Source: Candidatus Nomurabacteria bacterium (GTDB lineage: Bacteria > Patescibacteriota > Minisyncoccia > Phycocordibacterales > UBA918). Taken from it: DNA of 64,000 nt. The position numbers were made by a program, and so were the translations under genes. The DNA is taken from positions 372,241 through 436,240 of the forward strand of contig JACKGC010000001.1 of assembly GCA_020632135.1 (NCBI GenBank), given 5' to 3'. A model generated the notes under the pieces. The model saw nothing but the letters and a program-made list of their open reading frames with translations. It was not told where the DNA came from and made no database searches. Each line of letters starts with the position of its first letter. The first letter of the stretch is position 1. Positions 7,595 through 52,548 of the stretch are shown piece by piece.

Positions 7595-7757
7595 AAAAAA
7601 CGATCTGCAACACGATCATTTATTGAAAGCCATACTAGCGTAAAAAAGTGTTTCAGTCACCTTATTTTTCCGTACACCACGAACGTGCTGGTTTAATAGA
7701 CAGGCGCGTACAACTCATTCGAGTAAGGTTGTCATGCAAAAGTACATTATCGTGCTA

Positions 7758-7803
7758 CCAATCAGCCGGCTCGAAGACGTCAGTCTTCGAGCCGGCTGAT
7801 TGG
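7758..7803. repeat. Perfect 21-bp inverted repeat with a 4-nt loop
   Basis: CCAATCAGCCGGCTCGAAGAC-gtca-GTCTTCGAGCCGGCTGATTGG. It abuts the distal copy of the tRNA-Val 3' end. Confidence 0.8.
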
Positions 7804-7804
7804 T

Positions 7805-7826
7805 GAGCGATGAGAGACTTGGTCAC
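7805..7826 (-). repeat. Copy of the tRNA-Val 3' end (att-like); distal boundary of the AT-rich islet
   Basis: gagcGATGAGAGACTTGgtcac matches the tRNA-Val 3' end GCGCGATGAGAGACTTGaac (9557-). Confidence 0.7.
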
Positions 7827-7991
7827 AAATAAATTTTCTACGAAAATTTTTCGCGACCCCACCTCACTCGTTCGTCGCAAGCTCCTCACATCGTTCCGGC
7901 CTTCAAGTCTCTACGGAAGCAAAACTGTTTGCTTCCTCATCGCGCACGAACAAAAACCGCCCAAGCAAAGCTTGAGCTGGTTTTTGTACTC

Positions 7992-8020
7992 GTGCGCCAT
8001 GTGGGACGACGTTAGAACTT
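7992..8020 (+). repeat. Cassette-junction motif copy A; contains GTTAGAACT at 8011-8019
   Basis: GTGCGCCATGTGGGACGACGTTAGAACTT. Confidence 0.75.
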
Positions 8021-8078
8021 TTCTTCAGGAAGAAGTAGAAAAGGAAAACACCTACGGGGGTAGGGTTTCCTGTAGGTG

Positions 8079-8378
8079 TTAACTGGTCTGTATACTGGAA
8101 TGGTGATATAAGCTGGCAAGGAAGGCCCACCGGTCTTCTCGTTTTGTTCCTGGGGGAAGATAGAAGAAAGCTTCCTTGTTTGTTACCCCGTCGAGGAACC
8201 AATCAATTATATCTACCCCTAGATATTTTTTCGCAAGGCGTTTAAACATACGCTTACTGGGGAATTGCACTGAACAGGAATTTTCTACCTCTGGATGTAT
8301 ATACACGTGGTAAATAACCCCAATCTCGTAGCCTCCGTTAAGGGGACTCATTAACAACTCATTCACTCTTATACTCAT
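8079..8378 (-). CDS. Hypothetical protein in an AT-rich cassette
   Basis: Start at MSIRVNELL with a GGGAG RBS 6 nt upstream. The hairpin AACACCTAC...GTAGGTGTT plus a T-tract follows the stop. Confidence 0.5.
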   Translation of the reverse strand: MSIRVNELLMSPLNGGYEIGVIYHVYIHPEVENSCSVQFPSKRMFKRLAKKYLGVDIIDWFLDGVTNKEAFFYLPPGTKREDRWAFLASLYHHSSIQTS

Positions 8379-8453
8379 AACAATCTCCCGCAGATTGGTC
8401 AATGAACTCTTTACAACAAACAATGCACCGTTTCAGGTGCATTGTCAAGTTTT

Positions 8454-8482
8454 GTGCACTATGTGGGACGATGTTAGAACTT
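8454..8482 (+). repeat. Cassette-junction motif copy B; contains GTTAGAACT at 8473-8481
   Basis: GTGCACTATGTGGGACGATGTTAGAACTT. Confidence 0.75.
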
Positions 8483-8485
8483 GTT

Positions 8486-9217
8486 TTATTGAACAGGTTT
8501 CTCAAAAACAAACAATGTACCAATAAATCCATTGTCTTCAACATCCTGTTTTTCGAACAAGTTAAAACCTGCTTCTGCAAATATGTCCAAGTAAAATTGC
8601 TCGTCCCTATTGTAATCCACCACTGTTCCAATGCCAGGTATGGCACTGTAGTGGAGAGTTTCTTTGTAGTCATTATTGTTGTGTGTAATGTTCTGTCTTT
8701 CAATAAATAAATCAGTTTCAGTGTGAAGTTTGTTTTCTATATATTCCTGATTTGCAACAGCAATAATCGCTTTACCTCTAGGCTTCAACATTTTAAATAT
8801 TTTTGAAGCTATTTCCGGAAATTCTTCTGACAAGAAATGCGGAAAAACATATATAGCGGTAACAAAATCGAAAGTAGAGTTAGTATTGAAGTCTTGAAAA
8901 GAATTGTCATGAAGCTGAACGGAGATATTTTTAGAAGTAACATTTTTAATACTTGATGCGTTCTCAAAATTAACTCGTGAGGGTTCGCATCCTTCGAGCA
9001 GCACATTATCAAATTCACCTCCAAGCTGTTCAGCAACTCTTTTTAGAAAAAAACCAATTCCAAATCCTATGTCAAAAATTGAAATACTTTTTGCATCATG
9101 CACCAGGAAATACTTATTAATGATCAAGTCATTGATTTTTGAATTAATACCTGTCTGTTCCTGATTCTTCCAATCAATTTTGTTGTATTGCAAATAGAAA
9201 AAATCTTTATTTTTCAT
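8486..9217 (-). CDS. Class I SAM-dependent methyltransferase in an AT-rich cassette
   Basis: Motif I is IFDIGFGIGFF. Composition is visibly AT-rich compared with the flanks. Confidence 0.75.
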   Translation of the reverse strand: MKNKDFFYLQYNKIDWKNQEQTGINSKINDLIINKYFLVHDAKSISIFDIGFGIGFFLKRVAEQLGGEFDNVLLEGCEPSRVNFENASSIKNVTSKNISVQLHDNSFQDFNTNSTFDFVTAIYVFPHFLSEEFPEIASKIFKMLKPRGKAIIAVANQEYIENKLHTETDLFIERQNITHNNNDYKETLHYSAIPGIGTVVDYNRDEQFYLDIFAEAGFNLFEKQDVEDNGFIGTLFVFEKPVQ

Positions 9218-9295
9218 AAATATATCCTAACACCAATGTTCATTTAAGCCAGAGACTTTACAGTTTGTGGGTTGCTGATTAAAGCTAAAACTCGT

Positions 9296-9319
9296 TGTGC
9301 GCGATGAGAGACTTGGTCA
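9296..9319 (-). repeat. Copy of the tRNA-Val 3' end (att-like), proximal
   Basis: GTGCGCGATGAGAGACTTGgtcac. 19 nt are identical to the tRNA-Val 3' end, and it shares the GTCAC extension with the 7805 copy. Confidence 0.75.
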
Positions 9320-9426
9320 CCTTCGCATCAACATTTTGTTCGACTTTCAGTCTCCAAAATATTGTGCTACGCGACCCCGGCGCTCGAGTCGTGCTCCCTT
9401 CGGTCCGCGCGATATATTCGCTTTTT

Positions 9427-9480
9427 CGACCAGATTTTTAATGACTGAAAGGAATATAAAAATGGAAGTGCCCTTGTGGT
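9427..9480 (+). repeat. Copy of the junction-element block (GACCAGATT...TATAAAAATGGAAGTGCCCTTGTGGTG)
   Basis: Aligns to the R3 element at 40561-40612. Confidence 0.7.
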
Positions 9481-9514
9481 GCAAGTCTCTCCTCACTCTG
9501 CTAAATCTGAGACA

Positions 9515-39030: not shown

Positions 39031-39046
39031 ATGGATGTGTGATCTG

Positions 39047-39174
39047 GGGCACGTACTGTCCCTGGGTGCAACCAAATTTTTAAAGAGCTTGCGACTATAA
39101 AAATGGAAGTGCTCTTGTGGTGGAACCGGTTTGAGGAGATGACGATGAAGTGGTGAGGGGAAGGAGAGGGGTGT
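39047..39174 (+). repeat. Junction element R1
   Basis: GGGCACGTACTGTCCCTGGGTGCAACC...TATAAAAATGGAAGTGCTCTTGTGGTGGAACCGGTTTGAGGAGATG... Confidence 0.85.
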
Positions 39175-39435
39175 CTATCCGTATAGCTCACTATGAGAAC
39201 CGACGGCTACAAAGTGAACAACATCATCCTTAATGTATACATACACAGCTCGTACGTCTCCCGTCACATCAATACTAAAGTGGTTGCTCCATTTACCAGA
39301 CAAGCGATGGTTTCTGAGGGAGGGGTCGTATGGGTCATTAACAAATTTCTGCAATACCAACAGGACTTTCTTTTTTATCGGTTTTGGCAGCTTGGTAAAC
39401 TCTTTTTCAAATCGCTTCGACAGTACGTAGTGCAT
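39175..39435 (-). CDS. RelE/YafQ-family type II toxin
   Basis: 86 aa. ...LRNHRLSGKWSNHFSIDVTGDVRAVY...AVGSHSELYG. Paired with an upstream antitoxin. Confidence 0.8.
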   Translation of the reverse strand: MHYVLSKRFEKEFTKLPKPIKKKVLLVLQKFVNDPYDPSLRNHRLSGKWSNHFSIDVTGDVRAVYVYIKDDVVHFVAVGSHSELYG

Positions 39436-39436
39436 A

Positions 39437-39715
39437 CTAAAGCGTTTTTAGATGCTTGAGCATATCATCACCCGTCTTGAATGTGCGAGCCTTACCAGCA
39501 GCATATTCTGCTTGTGCCTCCTCTAAGATCTGCTCTAGATACGGAGTAGGGCGCAACGGATTCGCCGAGAGGGTAATTTCCTTATTACGAACAAATTGCT
39601 TGAGAAAGGCGTTTATTACGGTGCTCAACGGTACACCTAATTCCTCGGAAACCTTTTTAGCCTCTGCTTTCAGCTTTTTGTCAGTTTTAATGTTTAAAAT
39701 GGTGTGCGTATTCAT
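39437..39715 (-). CDS. RelB/DinJ-family antitoxin
   Basis: NIKTDKKLKAEAKKVSEELGVPLSTVINAFLKQFV. Confidence 0.8.
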   Translation of the reverse strand: MNTHTILNIKTDKKLKAEAKKVSEELGVPLSTVINAFLKQFVRNKEITLSANPLRPTPYLEQILEEAQAEYAAGKARTFKTGDDMLKHLKTL

Positions 39716-39750: not shown

Positions 39751-39760
39751 GTACTCATAT

Positions 39761-39860
39761 AGGCACGTACTGTCCCTCGGTGCAACCTAATTTAACGACT
39801 GGAGGGAGTATAAAAATGGAAGTGCTCCTGTGGCGGAACCAATTAGAAGAGAGGTGCCTC
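39761..39860 (+). repeat. Junction element R2
   Basis: AGGCACGTACTGTCCCTCGGTGCAACC...TATAAAAATGGAAGTGCTCCTGTGGCGGAACC... Confidence 0.85.
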
Positions 39861-39939
39861 GCTTGGTTAAGCGAGGCAGGGGCTTGTTTTAGGTGATCAT
39901 ATTGAAAATGGTTCCGCTGGGTCGGTAGAAAAAACAATT

Positions 39940-40200
39940 CTACCCGTATAGCTCACTATGCGAGCCGGTGGCAACCAAAATCAATACCCCTTCATATGAG
40001 TCATCAAAGATCACTCGTATGTCAGCTGTCACATCGAAACTCCAGAGTCCAGTATATTTTCCTTTGAGGCTATGCGTGTGCAGCAGGGAATGGTTTTTGT
40101 CCTGCAAAAACAAGGTTAGTCGTTCAGCAAATTGTTCTTTGGTTTTTGCGGGCAACTTCTTGTATTGTTTCTCAAACTGCTTCGATTTTGCAATCCGCAT
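39940..40200 (-). CDS. RelE/YafQ-family type II toxin (second copy, diverged)
   Basis: ...HTHSLKGKYTGLWSFDVTADIRVIF...ATGSHSELYG. Confidence 0.8.
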   Translation of the reverse strand: MRIAKSKQFEKQYKKLPAKTKEQFAERLTLFLQDKNHSLLHTHSLKGKYTGLWSFDVTADIRVIFDDSYEGVLILVATGSHSELYG

Positions 40201-40203
40201 AGA

Positions 40204-40470
40204 CTATTTGTTGAGTGACGCAACTAAGTCGTCAACAGAATCAAATTCTTCTAGTCTGCCAGCTTCGTAGTCAGCCCGTGCTTCTTTAACTAAACGTTCA
40301 AGAAATGGAGTCATGCGAGGGGCAGAGGATAGTTCGAGTTCACCGGTGCGAGCAAACTGACTGAGGGTAGCATTTACCACTGCGCTCAATGAAAGTCCGA
40401 GTTCTTTGGCTCGCTTTTGAGCGTTCTTCTTGACGGTATCATCGATTTTTAAATTGACCTGGGTTTTCAT
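40204..40470 (-). CDS. RelB/DinJ-family antitoxin (second copy)
   Basis: NLKIDDTVKKNAQKRAKELGLSLSAVVNATLSQFA. Promoter TTGACG-N17-TATACT-N8-ATG lies upstream. Confidence 0.8.
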   Translation of the reverse strand: MKTQVNLKIDDTVKKNAQKRAKELGLSLSAVVNATLSQFARTGELELSSAPRMTPFLERLVKEARADYEAGRLEEFDSVDDLVASLNK

Positions 40471-40536
40471 GTACCCAAAGTATATATAGATGGTATTCCT
40501 ACGTCAAGTACTCAAAATTAGCAATTGTTCTCTTTA

Positions 40537-40673
40537 GGGCACGTACTGTCCATGGGTGCGACCAGATTATTAAAGGGCTTGCGACTATAAAAATAGAAGT
40601 GCTCTTGTGGCGGAACCAGTTTAAGGTAATGACGGTTGAGTGGCTGGAGGTGGTGAGAGAGGTGTTGAGATAA
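40537..40673 (+). repeat. Junction element R3
   Basis: GGGCACGTACTGTCCATGGGTGCGACCAGATT...TATAAAAATAGAAGTGCTCTTGTGGCGGAACCAGTTTAAGG... Confidence 0.85.
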
Positions 40674-40766: not shown

Positions 40767-42068
40767 ATGCGTGAACGGTTTGGAAACTTCAATAATCCCC
40801 GCACTGAAGGAGTAAGAAAACGAGGTATCGACATAAAGGGTCCGAGTGACATGCTTGAGAGTCATGAAGCATTTGCCCAGTCAGTTGAGTCGTTGACTGA
40901 AGACCTGGCACAAGGTGTCCGTTTTGAGCAGAGTGCTTATCGGCTTACTGAAAGTGGTGATTTTACCAATCGGTATCGAGTAACTTTTTCTTCGGCAGAA
41001 GATATTGAATTTGAGATTAACACAAAAAATATCCCGAGCCATCTCCAACGTCAGCTGATAAATAATGAGTCCGTCGTGTGCTCTATAAACGGCGGTTTTT
41101 TCTTTTTAACTGATGATAAATTAGATAATCCTCCAAAAGAGATTGTTTTAGGTACAATTGTTCGAGATGGTGTGTTGTGTGGAGTACAATCGCATGATCG
41201 TCCTGTGCTTTGGGTTGATACAGACGGAGTTTTGCAGGTGACGGAAGTGATAAGCGAAGGTTATGTCACGATTGGAAATGCGATGTTTTCATGGGTAGGG
41301 AACAATTCTGGTCAGAAAAATGCAGAGGTGAAATTATTTGGCGTTGATAGTTGTGTCATTCAGCATGTGAGTGATTCAGAGACGGGTACTAAACGGGTTT
41401 TAAATGAGGAACTGAGTAAAACCCCAGCGAAAACCGATATCGTGGACATTGTGTGTGAGATAAGGGAAGGGTGTCTGGTGGTTTCTGAGAAGCGAGAAGG
41501 AGGTGGTACTTCTTTCTTGGAAGGGAATTTCCTTTTACAAGGAGACAAAGAAGCACTTCAAAATATCTCAGTAGGGGATATGGTTACTATCAATTACAAC
41601 GATCTTAATGTGAAAGAAATAAGAAATGCTATGACAGTCGGTCCTTCAGTATTTCATTTTGACGCGGAGCGTGATCATCCGATTAATCACGATAGGTCAT
41701 TGGGAGATAAACCATCTTTCTCTGATCGTCGCATGGCTCGTTCGGTTGTTTACAAAACGATAAATGATGCTGTCACATTCGAGGTGTTTGATGGAGCGCC
41801 TAAAACAGCCACATTTCAAGGTGTTACCCCAGAAGAGGTTGCTGATATTCTCAAGCAAAATGAGGTCGGTTTGGAGTGGGCGTATTTTCTTGACCCCGGA
41901 CAGTCTGCTCGATTGGCAGTACGTCACGCGGATGGCTCGGTTGAAGGGTATGGGAACCGTCATTATGTGCGGTGGCCAAGTTCATCTAATCAGCCGTATC
42001 TTTGGGCAGGAGAACACGGTCGAGCAGTACCCTCAGTGGTAAATGCTATACTGAAGCACAAAAAGTAA
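40767..42068 (+). CDS. DUF2233 / phosphodiester glycosidase-like protein, with no signal peptide
   Basis: CSINGGFFFL, MTVGPSVF and AYFLDPGQSARL resemble the NAGPA/DUF2233 motifs (INGGFF ... LDGGGS). Confidence 0.55.
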   Translation: MRERFGNFNNPRTEGVRKRGIDIKGPSDMLESHEAFAQSVESLTEDLAQGVRFEQSAYRLTESGDFTNRYRVTFSSAEDIEFEINTKNIPSHLQRQLINNESVVCSINGGFFFLTDDKLDNPPKEIVLGTIVRDGVLCGVQSHDRPVLWVDTDGVLQVTEVISEGYVTIGNAMFSWVGNNSGQKNAEVKLFGVDSCVIQHVSDSETGTKRVLNEELSKTPAKTDIVDIVCEIREGCLVVSEKREGGGTSFLEGNFLLQGDKEALQNISVGDMVTINYNDLNVKEIRNAMTVGPSVFHFDAERDHPINHDRSLGDKPSFSDRRMARSVVYKTINDAVTFEVFDGAPKTATFQGVTPEEVADILKQNEVGLEWAYFLDPGQSARLAVRHADGSVEGYGNRHYVRWPSSSNQPYLWAGEHGRAVPSVVNAILKHKK

Positions 42069-42070
42069 TT

Positions 42071-42682
42071 ATGTACACAACGAGAAAATCTTTCCCTAAA
42101 GATTTGCCACCAAAAAAAACCTTCTTTTGTATTTTGTGTGGAGCACCGTCAGTTGCTAAGGCGGTACAAGAGAATGGCACAGTCGTTTTTAAGTGTAGTA
42201 TTTGTAATGGTACGAATGAGCGTTTTTTAGCGTGGGATCCTGGTATGGAACAATTTTTCAATCAGGATAACGAGTTGGTGCACGGTAGTGTTGGGGTGAT
42301 CGTGCAGAATCAAAATAAAGAAATACTACTTTTTAAACGGGTGAAGTATCCGTTTTTGTGGACGATTCCAGCTGGACATTTAGATAAGGATGAGGATCCC
42401 AAGCAGGCTGCTACTCGTGAGTTACATGAAGAAACACAAATAAACGCGAGTGAGTTGCGGTCGGTCTTTGCGGGAGAAATTCGTGGCGATAGCTGTGTTG
42501 GTGGTGCTGACATTCACTATTGGCATGCGTATGTGTATCAAGCAAGTGATGATGTTGAGCCGATCATTGAAGCTGAGGAGGGAAGAGAGTGGGGTTGGTT
42601 TGTGCTCAGTGAGTTACCAGAACTAACCATGCCAGTCGGCTATTTACTATCTTTGTCCGAGGTGTGTGTGACTCTGGAATGA
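42071..42682 (+). CDS. Zn-ribbon plus Nudix hydrolase (NudC-like architecture)
   Basis: CILCG...CSICNG followed by the Nudix box GHLDKDEDPKQAATRELHEETQI. Starts 3 nt after the upstream stop. Confidence 0.75.
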   Translation: MYTTRKSFPKDLPPKKTFFCILCGAPSVAKAVQENGTVVFKCSICNGTNERFLAWDPGMEQFFNQDNELVHGSVGVIVQNQNKEILLFKRVKYPFLWTIPAGHLDKDEDPKQAATRELHEETQINASELRSVFAGEIRGDSCVGGADIHYWHAYVYQASDDVEPIIEAEEGREWGWFVLSELPELTMPVGYLLSLSEVCVTLE

Positions 42683-42715
42683 TTTCCTCCATCTAAACGC
42701 AAAAAACAGCATTTA

Positions 42716-42842
42716 GTGGAACCAAAAGTCCTTGTTTCATTATGTTTCCTAGGTATCTAGGACAGTAGGGCACGTACTGTCTCTGGGGTGGAACCAGTTT
42801 GAGGAGATGTGTATTGAGTGGTTGGAAGAGGCGAGGATGGTG
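42716..42842 (+). repeat. Junction element R4; carries the full inverted-repeat core at 42760-42781
   Basis: GTGGAACCAAAAGTCCTTGTTTCATTATGTTTCCTAGGTATCTAGGACAGTAGGGCACGTACTGTCTCTGGGGTGGAACCAGTTTGAGGAGATG... Confidence 0.85.
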
Positions 42843-42882
42843 TTTTGTAAATTAGAATCTTGATATTGTATACTTTAAGCAT

Positions 42883-43302
42883 ATGGAAACATTGCCTTTA
42901 GGTAAGGTTGCTGCTTCAGCGGCAGTTATTAGAAGAAACAAGATTCTTTTATTACAACGTTCTGAAAAATCAAAACTATTTCCTGGATACTGGACCTTTC
43001 CTTCGGGGGGAATAGAGGAATTTGATCCCAATGCTGAATCAGCAGTCTCACGAGAAGTAAAAGAAGAAACAGGACTAGACTTTGTTCCAAAAAAGAAATT
43101 TGGTTTTTATGAGAGTCATGCGGGTGGTAAACGTCATTTTGCATTAGTCCATCTTGGTGTTAGTAAAGGAAAGTTACGACTCCAGGAGTCAGAAGTGATT
43201 ACCGCAAATTGGTTTACATATAAAGAAGCAAAGAAACTGAATCTAGCTTTTGCGTACCCAAATGTGATCAAAGATTTATACAAAAGTAAGCTGATTCAAT
43301 AA
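42883..43302 (+). CDS. Nudix hydrolase
   Basis: GGIEEFDPNAESAVSREVKEETGL. TATACT-N8-ATG lies upstream. Confidence 0.8.
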   Translation: METLPLGKVAASAAVIRRNKILLLQRSEKSKLFPGYWTFPSGGIEEFDPNAESAVSREVKEETGLDFVPKKKFGFYESHAGGKRHFALVHLGVSKGKLRLQESEVITANWFTYKEAKKLNLAFAYPNVIKDLYKSKLIQ

Positions 43303-43343
43303 AATTGCCCCAACGTAGACGTCGGGGCAATGGAGGTTTCGTT

Positions 43344-44477
43344 TTACTGAAGAGCTAGCCATTCGGCAGCGATTCGTTGCCTGATAGTATCTTTCACTTC
43401 ATGGATGACATGATGCTCAAGATTATTTTCAACTAAGCGCTTGCAACCTTCAGCCATTTCAGCAAAAACCAAATCCATGGTTTCGTCTGGACAACTACCA
43501 ACAAGGAAGTTTACCGCTGCTCCGTTTCTTAGGATGTGAACATTTTTTCCTGAAGGCAGTTCATATTCAGTTATCATTTTGCTGATATGACTGACTCTTT
43601 TGGCTCGATTTCTTACACCTGGCATGTCCAGTTCGTTTGCTTTCGAGCCAGCACTGGCCAAAATGATTCCGTCACGCGCATCTTGCATATCGGCGATATT
43701 GATGGCTTGAGTGCCTGTCGCGCTAATGACTATATCGCACGCATTGAGCAGTTCTTCAAGCGAGAGGCAAACGTTGTGTCGGTAGCTCCTTGCTTCAAGT
43801 AGCCTGAGAGGATTTTTGTCGAACACTATGGTGTGTGTGCCATTGGCCCGAGCAGCGGTAGCGACTCTTCTGCCAATCATGCCGTATCCTACGATACCGA
43901 CTTTCTTGCCAAAAGCGCTGATACCCACATCTCTTAACATCGAATCCACGGCGAACCATGCACTTTCGCCGACAAACGTAGCTTCGACGTCTTTGATCTC
44001 GCTCCGAGCAATTGAAATGATAGGCACGTTAATACCTGTCATTGTTTGAAGGTAGCGATTGTGTCCGAAGGTTGTGACTTCAAGTACGCCGATTGGTAGC
44101 TTTGTGCCTCGGGTGCTTAACTCACTGAGTGGTTTGGCAAAGTAGCCCCCTACATCGACTAAAGCCAGGGGAAGAGATGCTTTTTCTAGTTGTCGAGCAA
44201 TAGTTTCGTGGAGAATAGATGTGTTCTCCATGGTGTCGTAGTCAAGCTGCTCAACTCGTACTCCCATTCTTTCGATACTGGCGATCACGTCAGTATTTTT
44301 CGAAAATGGTTTCGCGAAGATGACGGGCACCTCATGTCCTAGTGACAGTAGGTGATGTACGAATTCTTGTGTGTCAGTCAAAGCATGTAGTATCCCCACG
44401 ATGCTCATCGTTGGTGCTTGAGCGAGGATGGACTTGGTGACAACAAGTTTCTCATTTGAAAAGTTGATCATGTTCAT
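43344..44477 (-). CDS. S-adenosylhomocysteine-hydrolase-like NAD-binding domain protein
   Basis: GKKVGIVGYGMIGRRVATAARANG...ISATGTQAINIADMQDARDGIILASAGSKANELD parallels the SAHH NAD domain. The N-terminal half is not recognisable. Confidence 0.5.
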   Translation of the reverse strand: MNMINFSNEKLVVTKSILAQAPTMSIVGILHALTDTQEFVHHLLSLGHEVPVIFAKPFSKNTDVIASIERMGVRVEQLDYDTMENTSILHETIARQLEKASLPLALVDVGGYFAKPLSELSTRGTKLPIGVLEVTTFGHNRYLQTMTGINVPIISIARSEIKDVEATFVGESAWFAVDSMLRDVGISAFGKKVGIVGYGMIGRRVATAARANGTHTIVFDKNPLRLLEARSYRHNVCLSLEELLNACDIVISATGTQAINIADMQDARDGIILASAGSKANELDMPGVRNRAKRVSHISKMITEYELPSGKNVHILRNGAAVNFLVGSCPDETMDLVFAEMAEGCKRLVENNLEHHVIHEVKDTIRQRIAAEWLALQ

Positions 44478-44558
44478 GCTCCTGGTTGTGGAAAGGTCAA
44501 ATCTGGATGTGACAATACAATATATTCTTTAATACGTCTATACTTAAATAAGTTCACA

Positions 44559-44615
44559 GTGGAACCAAATCTCTTTATTTTATTATGTTTCCTAGATGTC
44601 TAGGACAGTAGGGCC
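44559..44615 (+). repeat. Junction element R5 (left half only)
   Basis: GTGGAACCAAATCTCTTTATTTTATTATGTTTCCTAGATGTCTAGGACAGTAGGGCC. Confidence 0.8.
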
Positions 44616-44705
44616 AGAGTCCGAACCTTATTCTAACCATCCTCTCGGACCAAGAATACATGAGTGGGGTGAAGGAAAAGTTGGCGTTGATAGCGGATTA
44701 TCGGT

Positions 44706-44746
44706 GAAAAAGAAAAAGCCCGCCAACACAATGAAGGCTGGCGGGC
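44706..44746 (-). terminator. Terminator of the PurM-like gene
   Basis: GCCCGCCA/TGGCGGGC stem followed by TTTTTCTTTTT on the minus strand. Confidence 0.65.
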
Positions 44747-44768
44747 CTTTCCGTTGTGTTGACGGGCT

Positions 44769-45953
44769 TCAGTCGTGATCGAGAGACGAAAGCACGCCGC
44801 CGTTTGCGAAGCGAGAATGGATGACGACTTCATTGTCGGCAGACTCGGTCGTATACCCGATAATGTACGGGTCATGCCCATCTTTTCTTGCTTGGTCCAT
44901 AACCAGATCGTCGTCTGTCTTGTCGCAGATAAGCATCATGCCGCATCCGCCGTGGAAAGTGCCGTAACACTCATGGTCAGACATCGGTTGATCTCCGAGC
45001 TGTGACAATCGCTGCGCTTCCTTGAGCACCCATGCCGGTTCCGGCATGGAGTCGAGGACAGCACCCACCCCAGCCGGAAGGATTTCTGTCAGTTTGCTCC
45101 AGACGCCGCCGCCGGTGATGTGAGCAGCGCCACAAAGTAGAGCATCTGATTCGTAACGAGCTCCATCCGATGCCCAGCCGTTAAGTGCTGCGACTGTTTT
45201 GGCATAGCTTTGCGATGGTACCACCAACGCCTCGATGAACTTGCGCGCATCGGGGTTGTGCATCATTCCGGGAAAGTCGGTTCCCCAACGATCCAAAATG
45301 AGGTTGGTGAACTTGGTCCCGCCGTTACAGCGATACCCCTTGTCACGCAGGCCGATAATTGCCATGCCTGGTGTGATCGACGAGCCGTTAGGGGGTATGT
45401 CGAGTGCAGCCAAGCCGAGGCAGGTAGCGCCCCAGGTCATAATCAGCTGACTTGGGTCACCAGTATCACAGAATGCGGTGATGCTGTGCTTCATTACGGC
45501 GGTCTCGCCGGTCAGAAGAACCAGATTCGATTTGCAAAGCGCTTGGGCAAATCCGCGAAGCAACGCTTCACACAAATGCCAGTTTTCATTTGTGATGGCT
45601 TTGACGTCGATGTTGCTGGAAGCAATCATGACGGGTAGGCCACCGCGACACGCCAGGTCATCGGCGTTCATAGTGATAACTTCCCAGCCGAGACCTTCAA
45701 AAGCCTCGGGAGTATTCATCAGCGTGAAGAACTGCGGCTTGCCACCAGCACCATCACTCTGCACCACTTCGTAGCATTGCTCGAACCGCCCTTCGGGCAG
45801 ATTCCAGATGTAGCCATCCATAGCACGCATACCAGCACCACCACGCATGATGGTAATGGCAGGTGAGTTATGGAAACTGGCGACGCAGACTTCCCGTGCC
45901 AACTTAGAAAACCGGTCACCCGGCTCAACGATTTCAGTATTGTAGTCGCTCAT
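44769..45953 (-). CDS. PurM/AIR-synthase-superfamily protein (subfamily not assignable)
   Basis: Start at MSDYNTEIV with a GGAGAAG RBS. SDGAGGKP, MNADDLACRGGLP, LTGETAVM and AHITGGGVW. Confidence 0.7.
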   Translation of the reverse strand: MSDYNTEIVEPGDRFSKLAREVCVASFHNSPAITIMRGGAGMRAMDGYIWNLPEGRFEQCYEVVQSDGAGGKPQFFTLMNTPEAFEGLGWEVITMNADDLACRGGLPVMIASSNIDVKAITNENWHLCEALLRGFAQALCKSNLVLLTGETAVMKHSITAFCDTGDPSQLIMTWGATCLGLAALDIPPNGSSITPGMAIIGLRDKGYRCNGGTKFTNLILDRWGTDFPGMMHNPDARKFIEALVVPSQSYAKTVAALNGWASDGARYESDALLCGAAHITGGGVWSKLTEILPAGVGAVLDSMPEPAWVLKEAQRLSQLGDQPMSDHECYGTFHGGCGMMLICDKTDDDLVMDQARKDGHDPYIIGYTTESADNEVVIHSRFANGGVLSSLDHD

Positions 45954-46139
45954 CTGAGCTTCTCCTCTTCTCAAAGATCGTAAAGATCTGGTTAAACTCA
46001 ATCGACACTATGCCTCAAAAGACATAAAAAGGAAACACCAAAGTTCAATTCCCGTCACTATGACGATTTTGTATGCAAAAATATATAGTAAAACAAGGCC
46101 AGTTTTAGCTTGTTAATGTTGGGCGACGTCGTAGAGGAC

Positions 46140-46148
46140 GTTAGAACT
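46140..46148 (+). repeat. GTTAGAACT junction core, copy C
   Basis: Context is GACGTCGTAGAGGACGTTAGAACTATTTTT. Confidence 0.7.
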
Positions 46149-46212
46149 ATTTTTGAAAGATTGGGTGATACGAGTATTTATATTCCGACATTTTACCCTA
46201 CTGTGTAACTCA

Positions 46213-46875
46213 CTATTTCCTCTTAGCAGATATGGCCAACGCATTTGGTAGCCCGCTCACAGCCCTATCTTGTTCGTTCCCACAATACTCATATTTAGTC
46301 TCTAGGGTAAAGTCATTGAGGAATTCTTCTGAAAAATATTCATCTAACGAATGTTGCGGAAATGTGATTGTTACCTTTCCATTAAAAAGCGTGATGGTGA
46401 TATTACCGTCGGTATCTTTTTGTTCTTCTGCATCAGCAACGGGGTTGCTTACAATCGCTATGAATTTTCCTCCAGACTTTAATACCCTCGCAACTTCCTT
46501 GAGAGACTTTTTTATATCTTTTGAGTAATGAAGAGCAAACCTTGAAGTCACAACATCAAACGACCCATCCTCATACGGGATACACTCAAAAGTTCCTTCC
46601 TTCAATTCTGCTGTATCTTTTAGAGTTTCTTTTGCCTCATCAACAAATTTACGAGACGAGTCAATACCAGCAAGATTTGTAAATCCCATCTTTGAGTATG
46701 CGGACAAATCTATACCACCACCGCAACCCACATCAAGCAATCTGCTTGTGCGTGAGAGTGCAGAAATTTGCTCGTAGATAAATCTTCTCCCTGCATCTTT
46801 TTCAAGATTTTCTATACTTGCTTCAGAATACTTTTTTGCCGTATCCCCACTATCATATTGTTTCTCAATTCCCAT
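46213..46875 (-). CDS. Class I SAM-dependent methyltransferase in an AT-rich cassette
   Basis: Motif I is LLDVGCGGGIDL. Confidence 0.8.
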   Translation of the reverse strand: MGIEKQYDSGDTAKKYSEASIENLEKDAGRRFIYEQISALSRTSRLLDVGCGGGIDLSAYSKMGFTNLAGIDSSRKFVDEAKETLKDTAELKEGTFECIPYEDGSFDVVTSRFALHYSKDIKKSLKEVARVLKSGGKFIAIVSNPVADAEEQKDTDGNITITLFNGKVTITFPQHSLDEYFSEEFLNDFTLETKYEYCGNEQDRAVSGLPNALAISAKRK

Positions 46876-46942: not shown

Positions 46943-47018
46943 TGGGGCGGCTACCGGGAATCGAACCCGAACTTTCGGTACCACAAACCGATGCACTAAC
47001 CGTTATACTATAGCCGCC
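46943..47018 (-). tRNA. tRNA-His (anticodon GTG) with G-1 and encoded CCA
   Basis: GGCGGCTATAGTATAACGGTTAGTGCATCGGTTTGTGGTACCGAAAGTTCGGGTTCGATTCCCGGTAGCCGCCCCA. Confidence 0.9.
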
Positions 47019-49387: not shown

Positions 49388-50701
49388 ATGGAAATTCAAA
49401 GTATCCGAAAGCGTGATGGTTCGGTTCAGCCATTTGATATCACCAAGATTGAAAATGCTATCGCCAAGGCGTTAGCTGAGACGGGTGAAGGCGACCGTGT
49501 CACCGCCAAAGATGTCGCGGAATTAGCTCATGAAAAAGTGGTCGCGATGTGCGTTCGAGCAGGCACGGCGTCAGATGATGATCCGCTTTCTCAAAAATGT
49601 ATCGATGGTAACCCTGCGGTGGAAGAGATCCAAGACCTCGTGGAGCAAGCGCTGATGGAGCGGGATCATTACGAGACCGCCAAGGCCTACATCATCTACC
49701 GCAATGAGCGTAAGAAATTACGTGAGCGAGATATTTTTAAGAAGCGACAAAACCTCAAGCCATATGAGTACCCAGAGCTGTATGAATACGTAGACGCAAT
49801 TCGGCACTCCTACTGGATTCACACTGAATTCAATTACACCTCCGACATCCAAGACTTCCACATTAATGTAAATGACGTGGAGCGCACCGCGATCAAGAAC
49901 TCCATGCTCGCGATCGCCCAGATCGAAGTGGCCGTAAAGACCTTCTGGGGTGATATCTACAAGAAGCTTCCTAAGCCAGAGATCGGCGCGGTCGGGGCTA
50001 CCTTTGCTGAGTCTGAGGTGCGACACACTGATGCCTACTCACACCTCCTCGAGATCCTTGGTCTCAATGATGAGTTTGCAAAGATCAAAGACATCCCGGT
50101 CATTCAAGAGCGCATGAATTACCTTGAGAAGGTGATCGAGCTTGCCAAGACCCAGGAAGACCGTGAGTACTCCCACGCCATCATGCTTTTTGCACTGTTT
50201 GTGGAGCACGTATCGCTCTTCTCACAGTTCCTCATCATGATGAGCTTCAACAAGCACAAGAATCTCTTCAAGGGCATCTCAAACGCAGTGGAAGCTACTT
50301 CCAAAGAAGAGCAGATCCATGGCATGTTCGGTATTGATGTCATCAATATCATCAAGAAGGAACATCCTGAGTGGTTTGATGAGAAGTGCCATAACTTCAT
50401 CATCAAGGCGTGTGAAGAGGCATACGAATCAGAAGCAAAGATCATCGACTGGATCTACGAAGCCGGCGAGCTTGATTTCTTGCCAGCAGCTAATGTGAAG
50501 GAGTTTGTGAAACATCGCTTTAATAACTCACTCGCCTCAATCGGTCTACCACGTATCTTCGAGGTTAGCGAGGCACTCTTAGAAGAAACAGACTGGTTCG
50601 ATAATGAGGTGATCGCCACCAAGCACGTTGATTTCTTCCACAAGCGTTCCATTAACTACAACAAGCGCTCGGCTTCGGTGACTAGTGACGACTTGTTCTA
50701 A
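49388..50701 (+). CDS. nrdB: Ribonucleotide reductase small (radical-generating) subunit with an N-terminal ATP-cone
   Basis: ATP-cone IRKRDGSVQPFDITKIENAI...AKAYIIYRNERK, then ferritin-like FAESEVRH and SKEEQIHG. Confidence 0.85.
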   Translation: MEIQSIRKRDGSVQPFDITKIENAIAKALAETGEGDRVTAKDVAELAHEKVVAMCVRAGTASDDDPLSQKCIDGNPAVEEIQDLVEQALMERDHYETAKAYIIYRNERKKLRERDIFKKRQNLKPYEYPELYEYVDAIRHSYWIHTEFNYTSDIQDFHINVNDVERTAIKNSMLAIAQIEVAVKTFWGDIYKKLPKPEIGAVGATFAESEVRHTDAYSHLLEILGLNDEFAKIKDIPVIQERMNYLEKVIELAKTQEDREYSHAIMLFALFVEHVSLFSQFLIMMSFNKHKNLFKGISNAVEATSKEEQIHGMFGIDVINIIKKEHPEWFDEKCHNFIIKACEEAYESEAKIIDWIYEAGELDFLPAANVKEFVKHRFNNSLASIGLPRIFEVSEALLEETDWFDNEVIATKHVDFFHKRSINYNKRSASVTSDDLF

Positions 50702-50865: not shown

Positions 50866-52548
50866 ATGGAATCCTGGTACTGGCTGAATGAAAATAGTCG
50901 CGCATTCTTAGACCGCGGATATTTGTCTCCGGGACAAACTGCTGAGGAGCGCATTCGCGTCATTGCGGATACGGCTGAGCAGTATCTTGGTCGTAAAGGC
51001 TTCTCAGACAAATTCTACGAATACATGAGTAAAGGCTGGATCTCACTGGCGTCGCCGGTGTGGTCTAACTTCGGCATCAAGAAGGGGCTGCCGATCAGTT
51101 GTTTTGGTTCATATGTATCCGACAACATGGGCAGTATTCTCCATACGCACGCCGAAGTGGGCATGATGAGTAAGTATGGTGGTGGCTGTTCTGGCTACTT
51201 TGGTGAGCTGCGTGCCCGTGGTGCTGAGATCGCCTCAGACAACGGTCACTCCTCTGGCTCAGTGCACTTTATGCAGCTATTTGAAACGCTGGTTGATGTA
51301 GTGTCGCAGGGTTCGGTGCGTCGCGGCCACTTCTCACCGTATCTACCGGCTGAGCACAACGACATCATGGAGTTTCTCGATATTGGTACCGAAGGCAACC
51401 CGATCCAAAAGCTCACGCATGGTGTAACAGTGGGGGACGAATGGATGGAATCCATGATCGAAGGTGATGAGGCTAAGCGCAAGATCTGGGCGCGCATCAT
51501 CCAACGCCGTGGCGAAATGGGGTATCCGTATATTATGTTCTCTGACACGGCCAACAAGGCAACGGTTGATGTGTACAAGGATAACGACCTGACCATCTAC
51601 GCTTCCAACATGTGCAGCGAGATCATGCTGCCAAGCAAGGACGACTGGTCGTTTGTGTGCTGTCTCTCATCAGTCAATCTCTTGCATTACGAGGACTGGA
51701 AGGACACTGATCTCATCGAGACCATGATCGGGTTCCTTGATGCGGTGATGGAAGATTTCATTGTGAAACTTGAAGCGTTGCGTGATCATGAACAAAAAGA
51801 AAAGCGCCAAGCATTTCGGTTTATGGAGCGGGCATACAACTTCGCCAAGGCTAACCGTGCGCTTGGTTTGGGTGTTCTTGGATATCACTCATTGCTCCAA
51901 TCAAAAAACCTTGCGTTTGAAAGTGATGAAGCGGCAGCGCTGAATCGTGAGGTGTTTAAGCTTATGCAAGAAAAGGCCGATGCAGCAACCAAGGAGTTGG
52001 CCAAAGAGCTGGGTGAACCAGAGGTACTCAAGGGTTATGGCCGTCGCAATACCACTACCATGGCGATTGCACCAACCACTTCCTCCGCCTTCATTCTCGG
52101 GCAGGTGAGTCAGGGCATTGAGCCGATCTGGAGTAACTGTTACACCAAGGATGTGGCCAAGATGAAGGTGACGATCAAGAACCCGAATCTCCAAGCTCTC
52201 TTGGCAGAGAAAGGGAGGGACGACAAGATGACTTGGGACAGTATCCGTGACAACGACGGCTCTGTGCAGCACCTTGAGTGTCTTACTGATGAAGAGAAGG
52301 CGGTCTACCGCACGTTTGCCGAGATCGATCAAGAGAAGATCATAGACCAAGCGGGAGAACGACAGGCCTACATCGATCAGGGGCAATCGCTCAACATCAT
52401 GGTGGCACCTGACACCCCAGTAAAGGATATTAACGCACTCTACATCAAGGCGTGGAAGCAAGGTGTAAAGAGCTTGTATTATCAGCACTCGATGAACGCG
52501 GCCCAGCAGATGGTTCGCAAAAAGCTGGCAGAGAAGGAAGGGAAATAG
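50866..52548 (+). CDS. nrdA: Ribonucleotide reductase catalytic subunit; short form without an ATP-cone
   Basis: ASNMCSEIMLP and the C-terminal region, 560 aa. Confidence 0.85.
   Translation: MESWYWLNENSRAFLDRGYLSPGQTAEERIRVIADTAEQYLGRKGFSDKFYEYMSKGWISLASPVWSNFGIKKGLPISCFGSYVSDNMGSILHTHAEVGMMSKYGGGCSGYFGELRARGAEIASDNGHSSGSVHFMQLFETLVDVVSQGSVRRGHFSPYLPAEHNDIMEFLDIGTEGNPIQKLTHGVTVGDEWMESMIEGDEAKRKIWARIIQRRGEMGYPYIMFSDTANKATVDVYKDNDLTIYASNMCSEIMLPSKDDWSFVCCLSSVNLLHYEDWKDTDLIETMIGFLDAVMEDFIVKLEALRDHEQKEKRQAFRFMERAYNFAKANRALGLGVLGYHSLLQSKNLAFESDEAAALNREVFKLMQEKADAATKELAKELGEPEVLKGYGRRNTTTMAIAPTTSSAFILGQVSQGIEPIWSNCYTKDVAKMKVTIKNPNLQALLAEKGRDDKMTWDSIRDNDGSVQHLECLTDEEKAVYRTFAEIDQEKIIDQAGERQAYIDQGQSLNIMVAPDTPVKDINALYIKAWKQGVKSLYYQHSMNAAQQMVRKKLAEKEGK

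Follow-up and report, generated by a model that had tools for sequence, protein, structure and literature searches.

A row of six nucleotide- and cofactor-related genes in a Patescibacteria genome is probably a mosaic of independent cassettes

In a 64-kb stretch of the genome of Candidatus Nomurabacteria bacterium (contig JACKGC010000001.1), which is termed the window in the following, six consecutive genes (g1 to g6) raise the question whether they form one functional system or are merely placed side by side. An original prediction, made from the letters of the sequence, had described them as an accessory gene set centred on nucleotide and S-adenosylmethionine (SAM) chemistry. Coordinates and translations were taken from the listing of open reading frames (ORFs) and domains were assigned with models from Pfam, NCBIfam and PADLOC-DB v2. 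The ORF listing and Pfam confirmed a row of six genes with nucleotide- or cofactor-handling folds, which comprise a DUF2233-type protein (g1), two Nudix proteins (g2 and g3), a relative of S-adenosylhomocysteine hydrolase (SAHH, g4), a PurM-like protein (g5) and a methyltransferase (g6). This row is a juxtaposition and not a conserved set. With a probability of roughly 60%, we regard the interval as a mosaic variable region of independent cassettes in a genome of the Patescibacteria (Candidate Phyla Radiation, CPR), instead of one functional system. In the layout that we propose, four cassettes, namely two ParE/RelB toxin-antitoxin pairs, a module A consisting of g1 and g2 and a module B consisting of g3 and g4, would lie between the genes for Fur and ZnuABC and a resident g5, and g6 would be a lone foreign methyltransferase between g5 and a gene for tRNA-His.

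The evidence for this reading comes from tblastn searches in which each of the six proteins was compared with 121 related loci other than the window itself (designated by L-numbers). In these searches, g4 was found alone in 55 loci, g5 alone in 43 and g1 alone in one, whereas the pair g3 and g4 occurred in 10 and the pair g1 and g2 in three, two of which also show a cross-match of the Nudix box to g3. Besides these two real pairs, mixed combinations consist of short Nudix-box cross-matches (g2 with g4 in four loci, where the matches are generic, and g3 with g5 in one, where the match extends over 61 residues) or of methyltransferase matches to g6 of 26-27% identity (g5 with g6 in two loci). 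The whole set is present only in contigs with a sequence identity of 100% to the window (L001-L003). Of the associations proposed initially, that between the DUF2233-like protein and the Nudix enzyme could be retraced in L063, L064 and L065, a trio of SAHH-like, PurM-like and methyltransferase genes was never encountered, and the combination of all six dissolves, with no locus that joins members of two different modules (0 of 121). Because modules A and B recur as pairs without the other genes and because g5 is native in composition and widespread, we conclude that g1 to g6 do not constitute one system.

A similar division is found in the GC content at third codon positions (GC3), which amounts to 0.58-0.64 in core genes including g5 (0.608), with ZnuA being lower (0.51), to 0.40-0.51 in the toxin-antitoxin genes (0.47-0.48 in those of cassette 1) and to 0.36 in g1, 0.40 in g2, 0.25 in g3, 0.455 in g4 and 0.33 in g6. 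The families of g1 and g4 are small, with 28 and 91 clusters among 5.8 billion proteins, compared to more than 329 for g5. The accessory character of most of the region is thus supported by the foreign GC3, the rarity of the g1 and g4 families and the flanking toxin-antitoxin cassettes and repeats. Counted as another accessory member in the original prediction, g5 is instead compositionally native, distributed across the CPR and linked to PurL.

The proposed units are separated by five repeats (r1 to r5), all on the + strand and located exactly at the borders of the independently travelling units, in the order Fur, r1, toxin-antitoxin 1, r2, toxin-antitoxin 2, r3, g1 g2, r4, g3 g4, r5, g5 (Table 1). 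Full repeat elements are confined to 39.0-44.7 kb of the window, and short partial matches to a promoter-like segment of the repeat are present at three other sites. The toxin-antitoxin modules, the repeats and the nearby tRNA-His gene had all been noticed initially and were recovered by Pfam, a repeat search and ARAGORN, respectively, and both toxin-antitoxin pairs have the hallmarks of type II ParE/RelB systems, with adjacent small genes that match YafQ_toxin/ParE_toxin and RelB/DUF6364. The repeats share 73-80% of their nucleotides, compared to an amino acid identity of 41-42% between the two toxin-antitoxin modules, and we have rejected tandem duplication as the origin of r1 to r3 since the repeats are far more alike than the genes between them. 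A repeat core of about 80 nucleotides is also found at module borders in three related contigs, with two copies in L010 (6304-6402 and 9673-9750, one of them adjoining the Nudix gene), copies in L063 at about 2466, 8028 and 8764-8850, which follow the g2 orthologue and a PemK toxin-antitoxin module and in the latter case adjoin IS30-like genes, and one copy in L005 (1252-1329). The core was absent from the other 118 loci searched.

Substitutions in the repeat core show a three-base periodicity with synonymous swaps of leucine and arginine codons. The core reads GHVLSLGWNQFEE-C-(D/E)WL-(D/E)AR-VF, followed by a stop codon, and has no consistent start codon. In an exhaustive HMMER search of 1.84 billion proteins, the encoded peptide was found only at the ends of ORFs of 33-107 residues, whose N-terminal parts were unrelated in 8 of the 10 matches (the eight that were read). 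A parent gene was rejected on these grounds, and no copy of the peptide was detected in viral contigs. Two further candidates were discarded: a structured RNA, with an RNAalifold consensus energy of -0.83 kcal/mol, essentially no covariation and no match in Rfam, and integron attC sites, with z-scores between -0.8 and +0.8 for single-stranded DNA folds of r1, r3, r4 and r5 and no attC-like hairpin. The repeat may be a recombination site, a gene remnant or a micro-ORF, and this lineage-specific element of about 80 nucleotides at the borders may be a novel type of site at which Patescibacteria exchange cassettes.

The model of cassettes is incomplete in several respects. A tblastn with four recombinase queries and a Pfam screen over part of the window detected no recombinase near the array, no hairpin or RNA structure was detected in the repeats by RNAalifold or single-stranded DNA folding, and the repeats in L010 bracket four genes, thus more than the g3/g4 pair.

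Table 1. Window positions of the repeats, cassettes and genes of the array and of its right flank
Feature	Position	Strand	Description
r1	39037-39176	+	left border of array; core unit present twice in tandem, copies diverged; direct-repeat families D1-D4
toxin-antitoxin cassette 1	39175-39715	-	ParE/YafQ-type toxin 39175-39435, RelB-type antitoxin 39437-39715; Pfam YafQ_toxin/ParE_toxin, RelB
r2	39751-39890	+	between the two toxin-antitoxin cassettes; 73% identical to r1 in nucleotides
toxin-antitoxin cassette 2	39940-40470	-	YafQ/ParE-type toxin 39940-40200, DUF6364/RelB-type antitoxin 40204-40470; Pfam
r3	40527-40666	+	between toxin-antitoxin cassette 2 and g1; 80% identical to r1
g1	40767-42068	+	433 residues; DUF2233/NAGPA fold, phosphodiester-glycosidase-like; first gene of module A
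g2	42071-42682	+	203 residues; Zn-ribbon (CxxC...CxxC) and Nudix; second gene of module A
r4	42715-42850	+	left part in common with r5 and right core with conservation like peptide GHVLSLGWNQFEEMCIEWLEEARMVF
g3	42883-43302	+	139 residues; small MutT/NudG-like Nudix; phosphohydrolase partner in module B
GC-rich hairpin	43304-43331		between convergent g3 and g4; terminator-like sites on both strands; probably their shared bidirectional terminator
g4	43344-44471	-	375 residues; SAHH-fold protein with NAD motif; core gene of module B
r5	44558-44614	+	left part only, 88% identical to left part of r4; right border of array; family D5
g5	44769-45953	-	394 residues; divergent PurM-type (AIR-synthase-like); outside cassette array
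g6	46213-46875	-	220 residues; class I SAM-dependent methyltransferase, Methyltransf_11 (87.6 bits)
tRNA-His(GTG)	46943-47017	-	ARAGORN; Rfam tRNA 60 bits; 3' end toward g6

At the right side of the array, g5 had been placed in the PurM superfamily but considered as unassignable to a subfamily. The former part holds, with matches to the Pfam domains AIRS and AIRS_C, and the latter part does not, as all 19 PDB matches of a family profile are PurM or aminoimidazole ribonucleotide (AIR) synthase and as homologues adjoin PurL elsewhere. The protein carries the PurM-type motifs DGxGxK, TGETA.M, AHITGGG and FHGGCGM, and its family is found in many groups of Patescibacteria, in Nanoarchaeota and in genomes of Micavibrio and Bdellovibrionales type. 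When one genome per GTDB species was scanned, 46 loci were retrieved (L017-L062), and in 13 of them a genuine large PurL (TIGR01735, with scores of 1437 and 1528 bits that exceed the cut-off) adjoins the g5 homologue, as for example in L018 (2041-7188) and L046 (5986-12362). None of the 46 loci contains homologues of g1 to g4 or g6 near g5, and no other pur genes were found in the sampled neighbourhoods. Since the gene is CPR-wide, native in its GC3 and linked to PurL, and since its profile matches PurM only, g5 is best read as a resident, divergent enzyme of predicted PurM type, which would probably work with PurL as a cyclo-ligase of AIR-synthase type. Its identity as PurM is weakened by a score of 93.5 bits for TIGR00878, compared to a cut-off of 236.35, and by the lack of a PurL gene within the window. 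In the organisms with this family, de novo purine synthesis is presumed to be missing, which raises the question of the role of a lone pair of PurL and PurM steps. A literature search on purL and purM of Saccharibacteria retrieved nothing relevant.

In module A, the DUF2233 fold proposed for g1 was corroborated by a Pfam match to NAGPA/DUF2233 (PF09992, 33 bits with a cut-off of 25) and by an AlphaFold2 model with a predicted local distance difference test score (pLDDT) of 92.7, which in Foldseek matches 5h3k, 6ozd, 3ohg and NAGPA structures over the whole length of the fold with E-values of 1e-16 to 1e-9. The N-terminus is predicted to be helical and shows by eye no hydrophobic signal peptide. 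The stop codon of g1 is followed by g2 after 2 nucleotides, instead of the 3 reported initially. The description of g2 as NudC-like stands with respect to its layout of Zn-ribbon and Nudix domain, but an assignment as NudC (NAD+ diphosphatase) was rejected, since the NCBIfam model NF001299 scores at 19.4 bits, far below its cut-off of 158, and only this layout is shared. A motif of the type SQPWPFPxS, which is specific to NudC and located downstream of the Nudix domain, was not seen in the sequence of g2, and its closest relatives of known structure are Nudix enzymes of the diadenosine tetraphosphate (Ap4A), DIPP and ADP-ribose types. The pair occurs in three other CPR contexts, at 60% identity in L063, at 49% in L064, where the two genes overlap, and at 36% in L065, where their order is swapped, and the g2 orthologues of these loci share the CxxC...CxxC ribbon, the Nudix box and a GDxCxGGADIH(Y/F)W motif. 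A g1 homologue of 29% identity in Actinosynnema belongs to a polyketide/sugar cluster that contains PIG-L and glycosyltransferases and lacks a Nudix gene. Family knowledge and this sugar context weakly support a function of module A as a cytoplasmic pair that would cleave a nucleotide-sugar or sugar-1-phosphodiester, with the Nudix enzyme acting on the pyrophosphate and the NAGPA-like protein on the glycosyl-phosphate bond.

The core gene of module B, g4, whose called start is Met3 of an ORF of 377 residues, had been recognized as a protein with an SAHH-like NAD domain and an unrecognisable N-terminal half. The first assignment is borne out by a Pfam match to AdoHcyase_NAD, and the second has to be revised, as the NCBIfam model of SAHH aligns over residues 24-371 and as the AlphaFold2 model (pLDDT 92.4) superimposes in Foldseek with a template modelling (TM) score of 0.82 over 377 columns on SAHH (3x2f, 7r39) at 21-26% identity. 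The scores remain below the equivalog cut-offs of SAHH, with 129.4 bits compared to 497.6 for TIGR00936 and 144.8 compared to 275 for NF004005. The NAD motif GYGMIG is retained, V216 and D218 (the acidic residue at the NAD-ribose) are invariant in the family alignment and equivalents of His55 and Lys186 are preserved. In contrast, six of eight substrate or catalytic residues of SAHH are, as seen in alignments to 7r39 and 7r37, replaced by alternatives that are conserved within the family. In motifs whose changes we take to map to the following positions of human SAHH, DDGGD has become DVGGY (D131 to V), EETTTG has become EVTTFG (E156 to V), TK..FDN has become IK..EAT (D190 to A and N191 to T), GHF..E has become GSK..E (H301 to S) and GHP.E.MD has become SCP.E.MD (H353 to C). 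The replaced positions are invariant or near-invariant over an alignment that spans 33-87% identity, and the pocket of the g4 family contains the similarly conserved polar or charged residues H137, N138, R156, S157, K160, E163, S276 and E280. Because the substituted positions are themselves conserved across the family, this pattern argues for a putatively remodelled active site rather than for decay.

The neighbour of g4, g3, matches the Pfam NUDIX family with 73 bits, with top affinities in NCBIfam to MutT/NudG-type models. It faces g4 homologues in convergent orientation in relatives of 59-87% identity (L004-L010, L066, L067 and L069), and at g4 identities of 87% (L010) and 64% (L004-L009) g3 is the only one of the other genes that is retained. 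Clustering of the neighbours over 57 metagenome loci of the g4 family identified as partners a CYTH protein of 170-185 residues in 23, which aligns with class IV adenylate cyclase over its full length but scores below the threshold, a g3-like Nudix protein in eight, including three distant cases that are operonic, and a YedJ-like HD phosphohydrolase in four. Two loci with a guanylate-kinase-Nudix fusion (L078) or a guanylate-kinase protein (L105) are already contained in the Nudix count; Pfam detects a Nudix domain in L078 only, and the protein of L105 was grouped with the g3-like Nudix set. When restricted to the 27 loci, from diverse bacteria, with at least 700 nucleotides on both sides of the g4 homologue, profiles built from the clusters place a nucleotide phosphohydrolase within two genes in 23, and the remaining surroundings of the pair vary between loci. 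Module B is thus a member of a broad family of predicted two-gene units, in which an SAHH-fold protein with NAD motif is accompanied by an interchangeable nucleotide phosphohydrolase. This family resides in otherwise unrelated contexts that are often defence islands or mobile. Distant relatives have as neighbours Ppl (177 bits), PDC-S27 (678 bits), a type I HsdR, an E1-like protein, serine recombinases and an RHS toxin locus, and one g4 homologue is located on a segment of a conjugative plasmid of Agrobacterium fabrum with an integrase. A 169-residue neighbour of the latter was considered as a hidden CYTH, Nudix or HD protein and dismissed, as it matches neither Pfam nor the built profiles.

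Other arrangements of the family were observed alongside. In L015/L016 (1-9944, also L077, L080 and L081), an RHS/YD-repeat toxin, a small ORF, two CYTH genes, a g4 homologue and a Ppl-like gene follow each other, which places the SAHH-like/CYTH module within a locus of polymorphic toxin and defence genes. Fusions of an M78 metallopeptidase of ImmA/IrrE type with an SAHH-like domain, 635-656 residues in length, are found in L014 (7001-8923) and in P0027, P0030, P0045, P0057, P0061 and P0081. In L011 (8001-9140, the same in L101), a g4 homologue of 48% identity stands alone in antisense orientation between atpE and atpB of an otherwise intact ATP synthase operon, which adjoins secY and ribosomal protein genes. 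A literature search on CYTH proteins with SAHH retrieved nothing relevant.

Modified nucleotides are known weapons in conflict settings, and we tentatively consider it possible, if on balance doubtful, that g3 and g4 are the CPR form of an undescribed mobile two-gene nucleotide conflict system, which would make or destroy a nucleoside-derived molecule such as a ribose-modified analogue to block the replication of phages or competitors. As part of our main reading of module B, the phosphohydrolase would change the phosphorylation of a nucleotide, with the MutT-like g3 converting a nucleoside triphosphate to the monophosphate and pyrophosphate. The SAHH-like enzyme would then use tightly bound NAD+ for a transient 3'-oxidation of the ribose, as in SAHH and AgmF, by which a group would be added or eliminated at C4'/C5' of the nucleoside. 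The molecule made or destroyed in this way would most likely act in a setting of defence or toxin-immunity. The SAHH-fold/phosphohydrolase pair is absent from current defence catalogues, for which the models of PADLOC-DB v2 were searched, and its function, if confirmed, would extend the NAD-assisted ribose chemistry of SAHH to a new substrate. A context of defence or anti-defence had been suspected from the start. Its first part receives support from distant g3/g4 relatives, which often lie beside defence genes, whereas the second, a phage-borne anti-defence function, is unsupported because a scan of viral contigs for g1, g4 and g6 retrieved no relatives.

A number of findings count against this proposal. 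The link to defence is guilt by association and is confined to a minority of the loci and to distant relatives of 33-39% identity, and neither the distant g4 homologues nor their CYTH partners match a PADLOC model. In the CPR clade the g3/g4 pair is convergent and not operonic, and the CPR relative in L011/L101 lacks any partner. With six canonical SAHH residues lost, g4 could bind a ligand without being catalytic, and the M78 fusions suggest that a domain of this kind can act as putative ligand sensor of a protease. Moreover, the mechanisms described for both modules are deduced from folds, motifs and neighbourhoods only.

Among the alternatives to a mosaic of independent cassettes, the one that survives best, albeit as an unlikely one, views the genes as ordinary nucleotide housekeeping or salvage in an auxotrophic episymbiont, whose clustering would reflect lineage-specific metabolism and not conflict. 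In this case the Nudix enzymes would sanitise or recycle scavenged nucleotides, g1 would recycle host-derived sugar phosphodiesters, g4 would be a divergent SAH or nucleoside hydrolase, g5 would be PurM and g6 a routine methyltransferase. CPR genomes depend on salvage, ribonucleotide reductase genes are located 2.5 kb away, g5 is found throughout the CPR with its link to PurL, one CPR relative of g4 lies among genes for ATP synthase and ribosomal proteins, and at some distant loci the neighbouring genes are of housekeeping type, for example those for RNase R and transporters. These features are difficult to reconcile with the foreign GC3 of g1 to g4 and g6 in an array of cassettes with toxin-antitoxin modules, with the rarity of the g1 and g4 families relative to that of g5, and with the loss of SAHH residues in a protein whose relatives are encoded on a conjugative plasmid and beside Ppl, PDC-S27, HsdR and RHS genes.

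A second alternative, which we regard as improbable, concerns the SAHH-like protein, which would be a pseudoenzyme that senses a nucleoside or NAD and would either control a partner that sets the level of a nucleotide signal or be under the control of such a partner, with a CyaB-like CYTH protein making a cyclic or linear nucleotide and Nudix or HD proteins degrading it. The loss of catalytic residues next to a preserved cofactor motif is in line with this view, as is the fusion of the same domain to M78 peptidases of ImmA/IrrE type, proteases that typically respond to signals, and the end-to-end alignment of the CYTH partners with class IV adenylate cyclase. Conversely, the residues that have replaced the canonical ones are invariant or near-invariant and polar or charged, so that the pocket looks like a new active site, the cyclase scores amount to 30-49 bits compared to a cut-off of 58, and Nudix and HD partners would be unable to make a signal, which leaves no single logic for all variants.

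Finally, that the six genes form one accessory pathway, or a defence or anti-defence system, by which a modified nucleotide would be produced or eliminated, with Nudix, SAHH-like and PurM-like steps and a final methylation, is highly improbable, since the shared theme of nucleotides and cofactors, the contiguity between toxin-antitoxin modules and a tRNA gene and the same arrangement in metagenome contigs of other samples (L001 and L002) are outweighed by the complete identity of these contigs to the window, which hence belong to the same strain, by diverged relatives that keep only g3 and g4 or g1 and g2, with g5 on its own in 46 genomes, and by repeats that part the modules and a g5 of native composition among neighbours that are not. 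For scans that rely on sequence, the locus thus holds the caution that thematically alike folds in a row may be juxtaposed independent cassettes, and here composition, repeats and comparative context concur on the limits of the real units. The repeat-bracketed array offers a handle on the exchange of accessory genes in the ultra-small genomes of the CPR.

The remaining gene of the row, g6, is a predicted generic class I methyltransferase of foreign composition without conserved partner, as its initial assignment to the SAM methyltransferases agrees with the Methyltransf_11 match and as tblastn detected no linked homologue in any of the related loci. Integration at tRNA-His with duplication of the tRNA end was considered and rejected, since the window contains no second copy and thus no att-type duplication. 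A second stretch of low GC content (0.41-0.44) is found at 7600-9500 between tRNA-Arg(TCT) and tRNA-Val(TAC) and includes an ORF resembling class I methyltransferases (8486-9217, - strand), which shares only 23% identity with g6, and a partial copy of the promoter-like repeat segment (9437-9481). This stretch is possibly a further small variable locus adjoining a tRNA gene. As judged by Pfam, g1 to g6 are preceded by genes for ZnuABC, Fur and the two ParE/RelB-type pairs and followed by genes for YibE/F, MscL and ribonucleotide reductase. The small subunit of the latter carries an N-terminal ATP-cone (Pfam ATP-cone and Ribonuc_red_sm) and the large subunit is short (560 residues) without ATP-cone match, an uncommon arrangement of the allosteric domain; the two ORFs are located at 49388-50701 and 50866-52548. 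Between 57000 and 61000, the window differs from its remainder by a GC content of up to 0.56-0.60 and a negative GC skew. In PADLOC-DB v2, g1, g4 and g5 are without any match, g2 and g3 match only the generic Nudix model PDC-S07 and g6 only the generic methyltransferase region of mad2. A search of 36-49 kb against Rfam in E-value mode found the tRNA alone, and a search of PHROGs retrieved generic families only.

The array resembles integron arrays with toxin-antitoxin cassettes in its repeats of the same orientation at every cassette border, its toxin-antitoxin cassettes with their own promoters on the opposite strand and its varied cassette composition. It differs from integrons, such as sedentary chromosomal ones, in repeats that lack attC-like hairpins or a consensus structure, in the codon-like conservation of the repeat core and in that tblastn with four recombinases as queries detected no neighbouring integrase. 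A literature search on integrons of Patescibacteria retrieved nothing relevant. With the 'uncovering enzyme' NAGPA and bacterial DUF2233 proteins (6pki, 3ohg, 5h3k and 6ozd), g1 shares the fold of the whole protein at an identity of only 12-14%. NAGPA is luminal and 6ozd has been described as exported, whereas g1 appears to lack a signal peptide and is fixed in a pair with a Zn-ribbon Nudix enzyme, an association that was not found in the literature searched. As for g5, the likeness to PurM (TIGR00878; 1cli, 3m84) extends to both AIRS domains, the motifs and the linkage to PurL in other genomes, and the differences consist in about 50 additional residues, a score below the cut-off and a restricted taxonomic range.

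With SAHH or AhcY (3x2f, 7r39, 1a7a), g4 has in common the complete two-domain fold and the GxGxxG NAD motif. It is shorter by 30-60 residues and lacks the C-terminal tail, and whereas SAHH is a single housekeeping gene, g4 is rare and mobile and has a phosphohydrolase as its partner. The angustmycin biosynthesis protein AgmF is an NAD+-dependent dehydratase of SAHH fold with tightly bound NAD+ and a nucleoside substrate other than SAH, in which H56, D129, K184, D188 and H299 were found to be essential by mutagenesis (PMC8599513). AgmF retains these catalytic residues and belongs to an antibiotic cluster of six genes, whereas the g4 family, which retains only the counterparts of the histidine and the lysine and no longer has those of D129, D188 and H299, occurs in a two-gene pair. 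AgmF nevertheless provides a precedent for chemistry at C4'/C5' of nucleosides other than SAH on the SAHH fold.

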